Positions 52,584 to 56,816 of a stretch of DNA of 58,342 nt are shown here, in pieces. The DNA comes from a phage. The stretch lies in sequence record PZ445426.1; one strand, 5' to 3'. The translations under genes and the position numbers were made by a program. The notes beneath the pieces are model-generated. The model saw only the letters and a program-made list of their open reading frames with translations, had not been told where the DNA came from and did not search any database. The number at the start of each line of letters is the position of its first letter. Within the stretch, counting starts at the first letter, position 1.

Positions 52584-52680
52584 AATGCATATGGCACATT
52601 ATTGACCCAATTTCCTGGAAGAAGTATAATTATCAATCTATAATGGACTCTACGGAGCCCTTAATTATCTGGAGGTTGTT

Positions 52681-52983: not shown

Positions 52984-53201
52984 AAATATTCATAATACTA
53001 GGCGTTATACTTGCCTTTGTTGTATTTGCAATCGTAGACTCCAAAGAAATGGAGCAGCAAAACTGTCAACGTACTGGTAACAGCCGGGAATATATTGTTT
53101 GGAACAATATTTACGATGCAAAAGGTAATTTTATGTCAATGTACCCACAGTTTATTACTGAGTATGAATATAAATGTGATGACTATAACAGGTGGAGATA
53201 A
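52980..53201 (+). CDS. small membrane-anchored protein
   Basis: 73 aa; N-terminal hydrophobic helix MKIFIILGVILAFVVFAIV. Confidence 0.4.
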   Translation: MKIFIILGVILAFVVFAIVDSKEMEQQNCQRTGNSREYIVWNNIYDAKGNFMSMYPQFITEYEYKCDDYNRWR

Positions 53202-53203
53202 TA

Positions 53204-53746
53204 ATGAGCTGTCAAAAATGTAACGGAACGGGAATGGTTGATAGTGGTGGAGTTCAACCGTGGGGTGAGCCTATTCTGGTGGAGTGCGATTGTTTATATC
53301 GTGAGCGTGATGCTTGGGAGCTGGATCGAGCTGGAGGTTATTACTCCCGTCATGTTATGGCAATGACATCCGAAGGTTTGCACAGCAAAGGTGATATTGC
53401 TGCGGAACTGGGTTATCGTGATATGCGGATTGACCAGTTAGAAGCTGAATGGCGTGCTCAGGAAGAACGTGCAGAAAATGCTGAGACGGATCTTGTCGAC
53501 ATGCGTGCTGCTGAGCACGCTCTATCCGATTCTTATATTCGTTTGCGTCAAATTGTTGGTGCAATGAATCCGCCTGGTGTGAGCAGCGAAGAGGTGTGGG
53601 CGCATACCGAGAAGAAGGCTCAAGAGTTGCGTGATCGCTGCGAAGCTCTGGAAGCTATAGCAAAGGACTTCCTGCGTCGTAATAAATATGGTCCTTTGTT
53701 CTATCGTGATTTGTATAACCGTTTTAAGGAGGTTATTGGTGATTGA
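53204..53746 (+). CDS. zinc-finger (CxxCxGxG) coiled-coil protein
   Basis: ATG 53204 (track start 53192 is GTG); N-terminal CQKCNGTG...ECDC. Confidence 0.45.
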   Translation: MSCQKCNGTGMVDSGGVQPWGEPILVECDCLYRERDAWELDRAGGYYSRHVMAMTSEGLHSKGDIAAELGYRDMRIDQLEAEWRAQEERAENAETDLVDMRAAEHALSDSYIRLRQIVGAMNPPGVSSEEVWAHTEKKAQELRDRCEALEAIAKDFLRRNKYGPLFYRDLYNRFKEVIGD

Positions 53747-53809
53747 AGAAAATATCAAATATTGGAAAGGTTTTATTGATGAAATGTTGAAACCATTGGA
53801 GAAGAAATA

Positions 53810-54202
53810 ATGCTATTAGTCGTCACCGGAGGTCGAGATTTTAAGCATGTGGAGTATATTTACTCTCAATTGGATAAGCTGCATATGCAAAGAAGGATAA
53901 CCACACTTCGCCACGGTGACGCTGACGGTGTTGACCGGATTTGCGCACATTGGGCAGAGCGCAACGGTATTAAGACAGAAGCGTTCCCTGCCCCGTGGGA
54001 CAATCTTTCCTTACCAAATACCAAGATACGGTATAACGCCAAAGGTGCTTATAATGCACAAGCTGGCTCTTACCGCAATCAATTAATGCTGGATACCGAT
54101 CCTAAACCAGATCACGCTATTGTGTTTCCTGGCGGAGCTGGTACTATGGATATGTACAGACGGATTAAAGCATCCGGTATTCCTTACACTTTAGCGGAGT
54201 AA
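53810..54202 (+). CDS. LOG/SLOG-like Rossmann-fold protein
   Basis: 130 aa; VVTGGRDF and FPGGAGT match the GGxG / PGGxGT signatures of LOG/DprA-type nucleotide-binding proteins. Confidence 0.4.
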   Translation: MLLVVTGGRDFKHVEYIYSQLDKLHMQRRITTLRHGDADGVDRICAHWAERNGIKTEAFPAPWDNLSLPNTKIRYNAKGAYNAQAGSYRNQLMLDTDPKPDHAIVFPGGAGTMDMYRRIKASGIPYTLAE

Positions 54203-54235
54203 ATAATAGCTGATGTTAAAACTATTGTTGATGCA

Positions 54236-54676
54236 ATGGACGAGTCCAAAGACTGCCAGTTGAAGAAGTCGTTTGAAGTAAAACAGGTTACAGAGACTCA
54301 GTTGGTCTGTAATTTTGCGCGTTATTGTGGACTGGGGCGCGGGAAAGACTGGAACGGGCTTATTGTTATGCCTACATCACAGATCCTTGTCTATGTCCGT
54401 AATGTTGTAGAAGATCTTTTACGTCTTCAAATAGATATTGGTGACGTAGAAATTAACATGACCGCAAGTTCCACCATTGTGGTTAAATGGCAGTCGGGCG
54501 AGACACTTCGTTTGGAAGCGTGTCATTGTGCTAAGAGCTTGCACCACCTGCGCGGTTGTCACTACCAGTTTGTTGGGTTTGTGCATCCGCAAGGGTTAAG
54601 CGAGCGTACGGCGCTGGTAGCGCGTTTGCTGCTGCGTCCTTATAATAACGAGCCGGAAGTTATATACGAGGCATAA
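54236..54676 (+). CDS. hypothetical protein
   Basis: 146-aa ORF. Confidence 0.45.
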   Translation: MDESKDCQLKKSFEVKQVTETQLVCNFARYCGLGRGKDWNGLIVMPTSQILVYVRNVVEDLLRLQIDIGDVEINMTASSTIVVKWQSGETLRLEACHCAKSLHHLRGCHYQFVGFVHPQGLSERTALVARLLLRPYNNEPEVIYEA

Positions 54677-54677
54677 G

Positions 54678-54884
54678 ATGGAAACTCCATTGGCTAAACA
54701 AATGATAGAGCGTGCTGATCGGGACGGTTTGCCTGAAGACCATGCTATGCGTCGAACTGCACAAGCGTTTGACGAAATTAGCGTTAATTACGCTATGGGA
54801 AAGAGCACGCCTAAAGGCTTACTGGGCGCATGGGCTCGCGCTCGTCGCTGCTGGTGCAACTACACCGGAGAACCGCTTGTATGA
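54678..54884 (+). CDS. hypothetical protein
   Basis: 68-aa ORF; stop overlaps next start. Confidence 0.4.
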   Translation: METPLAKQMIERADRDGLPEDHAMRRTAQAFDEISVNYAMGKSTPKGLLGAWARARRCWCNYTGEPLV

Positions 54885-55303
54885 TTAAACATGTCAAGCA
54901 ACCAACGTTGAATACATGCGTTTCTGCGTGTTTGGCAATGATCCTTAATAAACCTGTTGAGAAGGTGATTGAGGAATTTCATAGTCGTTATTATAACAAC
55001 TGGGAAATCACTATCAGCGAATATTTGACTAAAAACGGCGTCCAGCATCATTGTTCAGAAGGTGGTGGGCGCGAAACTTTGCATATGGGAGGTTTGTTCC
55101 TGTGCACGGTGCCAAGTCTTAATATTCCGGGCGCATTGCACCAGATTGTGATTGATATGACAGATCACAAGTTTATTGTGCATGATCCAATTAAAGGATG
55201 GGAAGGTAAAAAGTTCTATGTTGGTCCGGATCAAGATCCTGAAGAGCCTGGAGCTTTCATCATTCATACTTGGGTCAAAGACGTTGAAATCCTGCCTTAT
55301 TAA
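54881..55303 (+). CDS. C39-like papain-fold cysteine peptidase
   Basis: ATG 54881 (ATGA overlap); KQPTLNTCVSACLAMIL matches the C39 Q-x5-C-x2-ACLAMI active-site signature; later IVHDP supplies a candidate His/Asp. Confidence 0.55.
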   Translation: MIKHVKQPTLNTCVSACLAMILNKPVEKVIEEFHSRYYNNWEITISEYLTKNGVQHHCSEGGGRETLHMGGLFLCTVPSLNIPGALHQIVIDMTDHKFIVHDPIKGWEGKKFYVGPDQDPEEPGAFIIHTWVKDVEILPY

Positions 55304-55364
55304 TTTTCTTGCTATCACATAACCCTTCATTGTATTGTGTACCCATCAAATAGAGGGGTACACA

Positions 55365-55550
55365 ATGACCAAACTATACGCCGGATTGTTTTTATTTGCG
55401 ACGTTAATGTTCGCTGGGCTTTATACCTATACAGTAGTCGAACAACCTTCCACGGTTATCCGAATCTTTGCAAGTACAGGGCTTTGTATCTGTCTTATTC
55501 TATTTGTTTTATGCATTGTTATTATCCAAGACCAAAGGAAAATTAAATGA
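55365..55550 (+). CDS. small two-helix membrane protein
   Basis: ATG 55365 with AGAGGGG RBS; two hydrophobic segments. Confidence 0.4.
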   Translation: MTKLYAGLFLFATLMFAGLYTYTVVEQPSTVIRIFASTGLCICLILFVLCIVIIQDQRKIK

Positions 55551-56008
55551 CCACAATTGCGTTTGATGGGAAAGTATTAGCTGCGGACCGTGGAGTTATG
55601 CGCGGGGAAGTTGTGACTGCTTATAAGAAAGTTCATAGCGTAAATGGACATCGTGGACGGTTTTTACTGGGCTTGTGCGGCCTTACAGCATTTACCGATC
55701 AGGTGTTGCGTTATTTTAATAGCGCGGAACCTGTTAAGTTCCCTGATATTAAGCTTTACAGCAAAGATGATTACGGGCAAACTTGCGGTCTTGCGGTTAC
55801 TCCGGAAGGTACTTGCCATTTTATTTATAATGATGGTACTTTGAGCGAACCCATGCTGGACGGATGGGGATCTGAGGGTAGCGGTTGTGTGTTTGCTGCT
55901 GGCGCGTTAGCTGCTGGTGCAAGTGCGAGCGAAGCTATTGAGTTAGCAATTAAACACACCACATGCGCATTCCTGGGAGTTGATACAATATCATTTGAGG
56001 GTTTTTAA
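55547..56008 (+). CDS. HslV-like / proteasome beta-type Ntn-hydrolase protease
   Basis: N-terminus MTTIAFDGKVLAADRG (Thr directly after Met), KKV, and GSEGSGCVFAAGALAAGASASEAIELAI resembling the HslV GSGG...AL...A.DIAE.A region. Confidence 0.55.
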   Translation: MTTIAFDGKVLAADRGVMRGEVVTAYKKVHSVNGHRGRFLLGLCGLTAFTDQVLRYFNSAEPVKFPDIKLYSKDDYGQTCGLAVTPEGTCHFIYNDGTLSEPMLDGWGSEGSGCVFAAGALAAGASASEAIELAIKHTTCAFLGVDTISFEGF

Positions 56009-56269
56009 ATGACTACATTCAGTCATCTGATCCCACCTGCTTATCATAGTAAGGTAGTTGACCACGGGACTCATGTTGTAATTGGTGGCGAAATCTTTAT
56101 CACAGATAACGAGGAAATCGCCATTGCAATTATTGACAGCACTCAGCATGACTTTATGGTTATCCTGCAACACGAACCCGATAACTTCACTTTTTACTCC
56201 AGCTACGGGGTCGATAAAGGTGGAAAAGATCTTGTTAGCTGGTACATTAGCGAGTGGTTTGACGGGTAA
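56009..56269 (+). CDS. hypothetical protein with HslV-like N-terminus
   Basis: 86 aa; starts MTT and has GTHVVIGGE like the HslV N-terminal strand; too short for a full fold. Confidence 0.35.
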   Translation: MTTFSHLIPPAYHSKVVDHGTHVVIGGEIFITDNEEIAIAIIDSTQHDFMVILQHEPDNFTFYSSYGVDKGGKDLVSWYISEWFDG

Positions 56270-56351
56270 TCTCCTTAGATCAATTCTCCTTGCGCCGTAT
56301 CAAGTTTCTCTGTTACCCTTGAGTGGTTCATGTCAAGCGGAGGAACTCGAT

Positions 56352-56789
56352 ATGGCACTTCAACCTCGTGGTATTCGTAATAACAATCCAGGCAATATTC
56401 GCTGGGGTGACAATTGGCAGGGCTTAGTTCCTGCTGATAAGCGGACCGATAAATCTTTTGCTCAATTCACGCAACCGATTTACGGCATTCGTGCACTAGC
56501 GAAAATCCTGACAAACTACACCAAACGTGAAGGCCTGCCAAATGTGGGTAAGAAAAACATCGACACTGTACGTGAAATTATCGCTCGCTGGGCACCGCCT
56601 AACGAAAACGATACGGAAGCGTATATTCGCTCTGTTGCCAAAGCAATTGGTGTTCAACCCAACGATCCAATTAATGTCTTTGACAAGGCAATTATGTCAG
56701 GATTGGTGAAAGCAATCATTCGTCATGAAAATGGCATGATGCCCTATACCGACGACGTAATTAACCGCGCTATTGCAATGGTACTTTAA
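56352..56789 (+). CDS. putative endolysin (by position only)
   Basis: ATG 56352 with GGAGG RBS inside ORF 56082..56789; GIRNNNPGNIRWGD motif; immediately upstream of holin/spanins but separated by a terminator. Confidence 0.35.
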   Translation: MALQPRGIRNNNPGNIRWGDNWQGLVPADKRTDKSFAQFTQPIYGIRALAKILTNYTKREGLPNVGKKNIDTVREIIARWAPPNENDTEAYIRSVAKAIGVQPNDPINVFDKAIMSGLVKAIIRHENGMMPYTDDVINRAIAMVL

Positions 56790-56794
56790 CTGAC

Positions 56795-56816
56795 GGGGCG
56801 TTAGCCCCTTTTATTT
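56795..56816 (+). terminator. intrinsic terminator (GGGGC-gtta-GCCCC + TTTTATTT)
   Basis: read directly between 56789 and the holin start. Confidence 0.5.

Follow-up and report, generated by a model that had tools for sequence, protein, structure and literature searches.

The 58,342-base stretch of DNA analysed here (sequence record PZ445426.1; hereafter, the window) is the complete genome of a Seuratvirus (Queuovirinae), an Escherichia coli phage, permuted to begin with the ATG of the large terminase gene. We examined seven small open reading frames (ORFs), A to G, that lie at 53810–56269 just upstream of the lysis genes, and that the original prediction had read as one host-takeover or counter-defence system combining a LOG/SLOG-like nucleotide-binding protein with two proteases of unrelated fold. 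Our analysis favours a different reading, to which we assign a probability of roughly 60%: the region is a mosaic made up of accessory genes that are distributed independently of one another, in which A, B and C make up a 5′ anti-defence islet and B is a proposed mimic of the large terminase protein (TerL). Counter-defence is real for A and genetically indicated for B and C, whereas the two proteases, encoded by D and F, stand outside the anti-defence function demonstrated so far, which corrects the view of the region. Of the seven features first described, six are upheld, the exception being the HslV-like N terminus of G. The gene content of the region is already present in GenBank many times, and the function of A and the family of F have been published previously; B, as a terminase-derived candidate mimic directed at Avs sensors, is the sole new testable element.

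Gene B and the large terminase

B (54236–54676, + strand; 146 amino acids (aa); phrog_25149) appears, from its sequence and its predicted structure, to be a degenerate and catalytically dead paralogue of the ATPase domain of the phage's own TerL (519 aa; 1–1560, + strand), with residues 44–137 of TerL as the apparent source. In a comparison of the B family profile with TerL from the window (hhalign), residues 19–116 of B aligned with residues 44–137 of TerL (E = 1.2e-5, probability 81%, 28% identity). When the 91 ORFs of at least 100 aa in the window were searched with profiles, TerL was the only non-self match to B, the runner-up having an E value of 0.016. As a control, 100 shuffled versions of TerL residues 1–260 scored 13.2 ± 2.8 (maximum 21.8), against 42.5 for the real sequence. 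A related TerL encoded on an environmental contig matched B better than TerL from the window did (E = 5.7e-7, probability 92%), and eight TerLs from other families gave E values of 0.12–0.66. Alignment of B proteins with two TerL segments (MAFFT) yielded 14 invariant columns in three common blocks, which read roughly T-x-x-Q, F...G-x-G-x-G-x-x-W-x-G-x-I and W-x-x-G-E-x-L. The predicted structure of B adopts an additional-strand, catalytic-glutamate (ASCE) fold resembling terminase ATPase domains, and the homology of B to TerL is thus supported by sequence comparison with controls and, independently, by structure comparison.

The aligned span extends from the last Walker A residue to Walker B. 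B has no P-loop (KQVT in place of GTRGPGKT, the Walker A sequence of TerL), no catalytic Glu of Walker B (FVGFVHP against FIGWNE in TerL) and nothing of TerL beyond Walker B, the nuclease domain included; we therefore regard it as a dead fragment paralogue of TerL that cannot act as a terminase. Homologues of B are confined to Seuratvirus-type phages (34 records), a narrower range than that of the TerL family. The start of B lies 10 codons further upstream in other Seuratviruses (MADVKTIVDA-MDESK). Because this upstream ATG reads ATA in the window (within 54206–54238), B probably begins here at 54236 and is 10 residues shorter.

Searching the BFVD database with the B model also returned four uncharacterised actinophage proteins of 122–155 aa: A0A1C9EHN3 (Gordonia phage Hedwig), A0A7T0Q392 (NancyRae), S5Y8Z1 (Mycobacterium phage Catdawg) and A0A345MEX9 (Ryadel), with target-normalised template-modelling scores (TM-scores) of 0.53–0.75 against B. 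These might be mini terminase-like proteins, and the similar predicted folds in Gordonia and Mycobacterium phages may hint that mimicry of this kind is a widespread strategy.

Evidence for counter-defence by A, B and C

Functional evidence is available from the Seuratvirus DruSM1, for which Ojima et al. tried to knock out each of its 105 ORFs and tested the plating of the 73 mutants obtained against a library of defence systems (bioRxiv 10.1101/2024.04.14.589459). Their primer and clone sequences show ORF83–ORF88 to be orthologous to A–F, at 96–99% protein identity to the window, and ORF89 to be orthologous to G. ORF83 (A) could be deleted, and the knockout was sensitive to AVAST type III and was complemented in trans ('Anti-AVAST typeIII'); HHpred assigned the protein to Smf/DprA. 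ORF84 (B) was also deletable, the mutant plating at 1e-4 on AVAST III and 1e-2 on QatABCD; its AVAST III effect was the strongest among the four AVAST III knockouts, ORF83 included, and the gene could not be cloned. Deletion of ORF85 (C) reduced plating to 1e-4 on QatABCD, and the cloned gene was inactive in trans. Deletion phages were not recovered for ORF86 and ORF87 (D and E), and ORF88 (F) could be deleted with no defence phenotype (all from 10.1101/2024.04.14.589459). The counter-defence role foreseen in the original prediction therefore stands for the A orthologue and extends, as sensitised knockouts, to the orthologues of B and C; deletion of the F orthologue had no such effect and the D and E orthologues yielded no mutants, and the joint system of two proteases with a SLOG protein was not supported.

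A (53810–54202, + strand; 130 aa; phrog_289) belongs to the YAcAr family of Pfam ('YspA, cpYpsA-related SLOG family', PF10686; E = 1.2e-17, 63.9 bits against a cut-off of 28.2), in agreement with its first description as a LOG/SLOG-like Rossmann protein with a PGGAGT motif. It is 96.2% identical to ORF83 (125 of 130 residues) and occupies the same genomic position. The PGGAGT of A continues as MDM, so that the terminal Glu of the LOG motif PGGxGTxxE is missing, and D114 lies one position earlier. In the EVADES preprint, ORF83 was modelled as a LOG-like protein with Cg1261 and TT1465 as the closest PDB matches and with a predicted AMP site formed by R89, N90, T112 and D114, of which D114 aligned with the LOG Glu (10.1101/2025.06.06.658234); A retains all four residues. 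Anti-AVAST type III activity can thus be predicted for A by orthology to ORF83, in which it is demonstrated genetically. As a nucleotide-binding protein of the LOG/SLOG fold, A would neutralise AVAST type III, an Avs sensor of the STAND/NLR-like kind, in the way that ORF83 does, possibly by binding AMP or through phosphoribohydrolysis.

C (54678–54884, + strand; 68 aa; phrog_27185), a basic protein whose stop codon overlaps the start of D, was listed at first, together with B, only as one of two unknowns; both are real and conserved. The distribution of C is patchy: it occurs in 13 Seuratvirus-type records, is missing from others such as that of phage CSP1C, and has homologues in unrelated Xanthomonas, Vibrio and Loktanella phages. 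C would be a mobile small gene, and the Qat phenotype of its deletion may be a polar effect on D. In Xanthomonas phages Olaya, Usaquen and others (MW802488 etc.), the C homologues (54% identity) adjoin or overlap the annotated large terminase gene.

How B might act is suggested by the sensors themselves. Avs1–3 are activated when they bind the TerL fold directly, and Avs sensing is apparently aimed at monomers of the target protein (PMC13581612). Given that B is apparently derived from TerL, that TerL triggers Avs1–3 and that loss of ORF84 causes the strongest sensitisation to AVAST III, we propose that B mimics TerL. As a decoy, it could occupy the Avs sensor unproductively without activating it; as a shield, it could pair with TerL monomers and hide them. 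That a truncated, dead copy of TerL jams or evades the terminase-sensing Avs receptors, which resemble nucleotide-binding leucine-rich repeat (NLR) receptors, is a tentative proposal that we hold at clearly less than even odds. If true, it would be the first viral decoy made from a sensed protein against a bacterial pattern-recognition receptor within the literature searched, in which we found no earlier proposal of a TerL mimic of this kind. Avs and NLR-like sensors detect conserved, essential phage proteins, and phage escape that leaves those proteins unaltered is largely unexplained; a dead TerL paralogue, the loss of which costs a reported four orders of magnitude of plating on an Avs host, offers a concrete and testable mechanism.

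Several points weigh against this reading. In absolute terms, B and TerL match only weakly in sequence (28% identity, hhalign probability 81–92%), and confidence in the B model is moderate, with a best predicted local distance difference test score (pLDDT) of 77 and four other models at 53–69. Because the ORF84 phenotype is uncomplemented and the gene uncloned, a polar effect on ORF83 or ORF85 may be responsible. The functional data all derive from a preprint that concerns a related phage, and the failure to delete D and E, which was scored on one host with a cut-off of ≤10 plaques, could be technical; Ojima et al. themselves describe their essentiality cut-off as imperfect and note that polar effects can explain failed complementation (10.1101/2024.04.14.589459). 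Seuratvirus TerL is sensed by KpAvs2 (PMC11564622), and Seuratviruses that carry B are still sensed in this way, so B evidently does not block KpAvs2. The 'AVAST type III' plasmid may correspond to Avs1 or to Avs3, and later papers equate AVAST type N with AvsN. Either assignment places the sensor within the terminase-sensing Avs1–3 group, any member of which fits the proposal.

The same genetics can be read differently, with B as a packaging regulator that controls the assembly, amount or timing of TerL, and with AVAST III sensitivity arising indirectly through free TerL or by polarity on A. The TerL segment from which B derives does lie between Walker A and Walker B; a change in the pool of TerL monomers would be expected to alter sensing if Avs recognises monomers; and ORF84, uncomplemented, lies next to ORF83, a validated anti-AVAST gene. 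However, B is non-essential in DruSM1, and its confinement to Seuratvirus-type phages, compared with the broader occurrence of TerL, fits an accessory gene. The ORF84 effect moreover exceeds that of ORF83, and a simple polar effect on ORF83 is not a ready explanation. We regard the packaging regulator as improbable and retain B as a candidate TerL mimic within the 5′ islet.

The proteases D and F and their neighbours

D (54881–55303, + strand; 140 aa) is a predicted stand-alone, C39-like cysteine peptidase of the papain fold. Its own score against Peptidase C39 (PF03412) is 13.4 bits over 22 residues, below the gathering threshold of 22, although 13 of 122 D relatives match the family at E ≤ 0.01 (best 2.4e-6). 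A papain-like C39 fold with the catalytic Gln, Cys, His and Asp was found, so that the stand-alone C39-type peptidase named in the original prediction is upheld despite the subthreshold Pfam score, and D, as far as its sequence can tell, bears every hallmark of an active C39-like protease. It has no signal or membrane segment. We found no ABC transporter in the window or in related loci and no convincing double-glycine leader substrate for D, only the G sequence having been inspected for one, by eye. D, in which the Gln-Cys-His-Asp set is intact, would be a C39-like Cys protease of the cytoplasm that probably cuts after small residues in a phage or host substrate. Its family is uncharacterised and very large (570 clusters at 50% identity), and this analysis flags it as a group of stand-alone C39-like phage proteases of which one member resisted deletion. 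Domain fusions in longer relatives were uninformative, comprising a zinc ribbon and one YunG-like domain only. The unrecovered D and E deletions, taken with the conservation of D at ~35% identity among Seuratvirus, Nonagvirus and Vid5, suggest an important function, and a technical or polar cause for the missing mutants is possible.

F (55547–56008, + strand; 153 aa) is a short proteasome/HslV-like N-terminal nucleophile (Ntn) hydrolase, as had been noticed from its sequence. It matches phrog_1040 ('peptidase HslV family') with an E value of 3e-32, and a profile of 16 F relatives retrieved HslV from the PDB (4hnz, E = 3.5e-12) together with BPH and proteasome beta subunits, 221 PDB sequences in all scoring E ≤ 1. 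The relationship emerged in the PDB by profile search only, and the single-sequence Pfam score was 15 against a cut-off of 22.4. T2, D14, K28, G45, G111 and G113 (GSG motif) are invariant in the 16 F sequences and correspond to the Thr nucleophile, Asp17, Lys33 and GSG equivalents. F accordingly bears every predicted hallmark of an active Ntn Thr protease, and it would be a protease of the PPH type, named for 'Proteasome homologue of Phages and their Hosts' and related to HslV and BPH (Fuchs, Alva and Lupas 2021), whose Thr1 is exposed by removal of the initiator Met alone. There are 205 relatives of F in IMG/VR.

To see in what company the protease genes occur, we searched the flanks of 80 IMG/VR loci with F-like proteins and 58 with D-like proteins, the latter gathered using 14 closer D sequences. 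Terminase, portal, head-morphogenesis or connector genes lay within 3 kb in 45 of the 80 F-like loci. This proximity to packaging genes in other phages hints at a late, virion- or terminase-related role for F, which is yet dispensable for plaque formation. D-like genes in contigs of lambdoid type had repressor, replication, NinB-like and NinG-like neighbours, which we named by reading and not by family search.

Two further genes adjoin the proteases. E (55365–55550, + strand; 61 aa; phrog_22841; orthologue of ORF87) has hydropathy windows at ~3–24 and 31–58 followed by a charged C terminus, in keeping with the two-helix membrane protein first described, and within the flanks of the F-like and D-like IMG/VR loci it was found in Seuratvirus loci only. 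G (56009–56269, + strand; 86 aa; phrog_23528) is acidic, with 13 D/E against 3 K/R residues, and is confined to Seuratviruses and Hafnia phage yong3. It had been credited with an HslV-like N terminus, a claim that we reject: only the tripeptide MTT is common to G and F or the F family (BLASTP E = 3.6, hhalign probability 0.3%). A double-glycine leader in G (…VVIGG/E…) was also discarded as a poor fit to the consensus by eye. The composition of G resembles that of small DNA-mimic or anti-restriction proteins. In a different frame, G is overlapped by a TTG-initiated ORF of 235 aa (56082–56789) that extends into the endolysin gene, and this long form of the endolysin is annotated in some GenBank records (for example, Dru_SM1, 645 bp), leaving G unannotated. 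Joint deletion of ORF89 and ORF90, that is, of G and the endolysin gene, is listed as giving viable phage, whereas deletions of the holin and spanins are not (10.1101/2024.04.14.589459); for an endolysin, viability of the former (56009–56789 in the window) would not be expected.

D, E, F and G might instead carry out late functions in lysis or in head assembly and packaging, with F acting on virion or packaging proteins and D and E needed for a productive burst. Besides the packaging genes around F-like loci, this account draws on the position of F directly upstream of the lysis cassette and ~2 kb from terS and terL, on the failure to delete D and E, and on E itself, the size, two helices and charged tail of which are typical of holin-like proteins. 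Seuratviruses also have a scaffold protein and no annotated prohead protease, but where the scaffold is a separate protein, phages often do without a protease. F, moreover, can be dispensed with, and D sits among replication, NinB-like and NinG-like genes in lambdoid-type contigs, not among lysis or head genes, and shows no signal or membrane segment. We give late functions for all four genes a low probability. The absence of an annotated prohead protease and the viable ORF89 and ORF90 deletion led us to ask whether D might serve as a second endolysin or as the prohead protease; neither was adopted, given the replication/nin-type setting of D in lambdoid-type contigs and the missing export signal. 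The mosaic reading, under which D, E, F and G would be the older 3′ part of the region, conserved within the lineage and not forming a single machine with A–C, is kept.

Gene distribution, genomic setting and known relatives

The reciprocal neighbourhood analysis separates the two proteases. D lies within 6 kb in only 4 of the 80 F-like loci, namely three Seuratviruses and Pantoea phage Vid5. Conversely, 9 of the 58 D loci contain an F-like gene, and in the five contigs outside Seuratvirus and Vid5 this gene belongs to another subfamily and is 4–5.5 kb away. Adjacency is confined to one group of phages: in Vid5, D, A and F directly follow one another, the stop of one overlapping the start of the next; in Providencia phages, D and F are adjacent; the Nonagvirus JenK1 has the order D-gp79-F; and D and F lie upstream of the lysis genes across this wider group. 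Because the phages in which D and F occur together share their overall gene order where examined, we interpret this as conserved synteny and not as independent co-occurrence, and an obligate D–F protease pair is rejected. A, D and F are found in 800, 196 and 58 phage records, respectively, and A and D are 87 kb apart in the Ackermannviridae phage ISTP3. Outside the Seuratvirus, Nonagvirus and Vid5 group the genes are thus independently distributed, contrary to the co-occurrence expected of one module. A single takeover or counter-defence system, for example one with a nucleotide sensor controlling two proteases, is very unlikely: translational coupling and shared direction of the genes, their contiguity in Vid5 and the closeness of D and F in Nonagvirus and Providencia phages despite ~35% identity speak for it, but A by itself complements its own deletion, loss of F is silent on the defence library, D differs again in having yielded no deletion mutant, and both the reciprocal counts and the restricted synteny contradict it.

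In the window, a rightward run of small ORFs leads into A–G, which form its distal part, and the run finishes with the endolysin gene, ~2 kb upstream of the packaging genes. The order continues with holin, spanins and terS; terS extends past the window end, and terL is next in the permuted genome (terS then terL). As originally described, the seven ORFs are co-directional (all on the + strand) and tightly packed, being nearly contiguous with junctions of the ATGA or TAAATG type. The only hints that bear on the first description of the genes as early come from consensus scans, which gave a sigma-70-like promoter match at 52602–52630 (+ strand; TTGACC-17-TATAAT, 11 of 12 matches), the best upstream of the co-directional run, and a terminator-like GC hairpin with a T-run at 56795–56808 (+ strand), directly after the endolysin gene. 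The DNA of the region is 94–97% identical to that of Greed, SA80RD, KurtStettler, Dru_SM1, CAjan and Seurat, with about 96% for Greed, CAjan and DruSM1. Of 34 matching phage records, 30 have a coverage of the region of at least 80%. Scans of all ORFs with PADLOC and NCBIfam gave no significant match, nor did PDB sequence searches, by single sequence or profile, with A, B and D.

The stretch 53700–56400, 2.70 kb long in the window, is prone to insertions and deletions. An HNH homing endonuclease or additional small ORFs are present there in some relatives (matched spans of 2.97–3.45 kb), and others are without C. Upstream, A is adjoined by an ORF of 184 aa (53192–53746) that matches only PHROGs of unknown function (phrog_34533); an N-terminal CxxCxGxG...CxC, like that of a DnaJ-type zinc finger, is followed by a long, helical acidic region. 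In the record of phage CSP1C (PQ202980.1, 2378–5539), product names are apparently displaced by one gene: 'DprA', 'T3SS chaperone', 'cysteine protease', 'HslV' and 'endolysin' each stand on the gene following the one that they fit.

Each of the main proteins can be set beside a known system. A shares with DruSM1 ORF83 the SLOG/YAcAr domain, PGGAGT and the residues R89, N90, T112 and D114, and differs from it in no sequence feature tested. The C39 domains of bacteriocin and PCAT ABC transporters (PCAT1, ComA and LahT) are the nearest comparison for D, which differs in being stand-alone, predicted to be cytoplasmic, phage-encoded and without an identified double-glycine leader substrate. F resembles PPH in its size class (~140–155 aa), its carriage by phages, its MTT N terminus and its retention of the proteasome catalytic residues, membership of the authors' cluster being judged by description; unlike HslV with HslU, F is adjoined by no HslU-like ATPase gene in the window, although HslU of the host might take that part. 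Compared with phage TerL (D6E 5oe8, HK97 6z6d, Sf6 4idh and TerL of the window), B has 146 aa against 519 aa for the last of these and has neither the C-motif region nor the nuclease domain. A case to compare with B is Ksap2 of Bas60, a small protein with weak resemblance to terminase ATPases that activates KpAvs2 (PMC11564622), a likeness drawn from descriptions and not from sequence. The two have opposite signs: Ksap2 triggers its sensor, whereas it is the loss of B that sensitises the phage.

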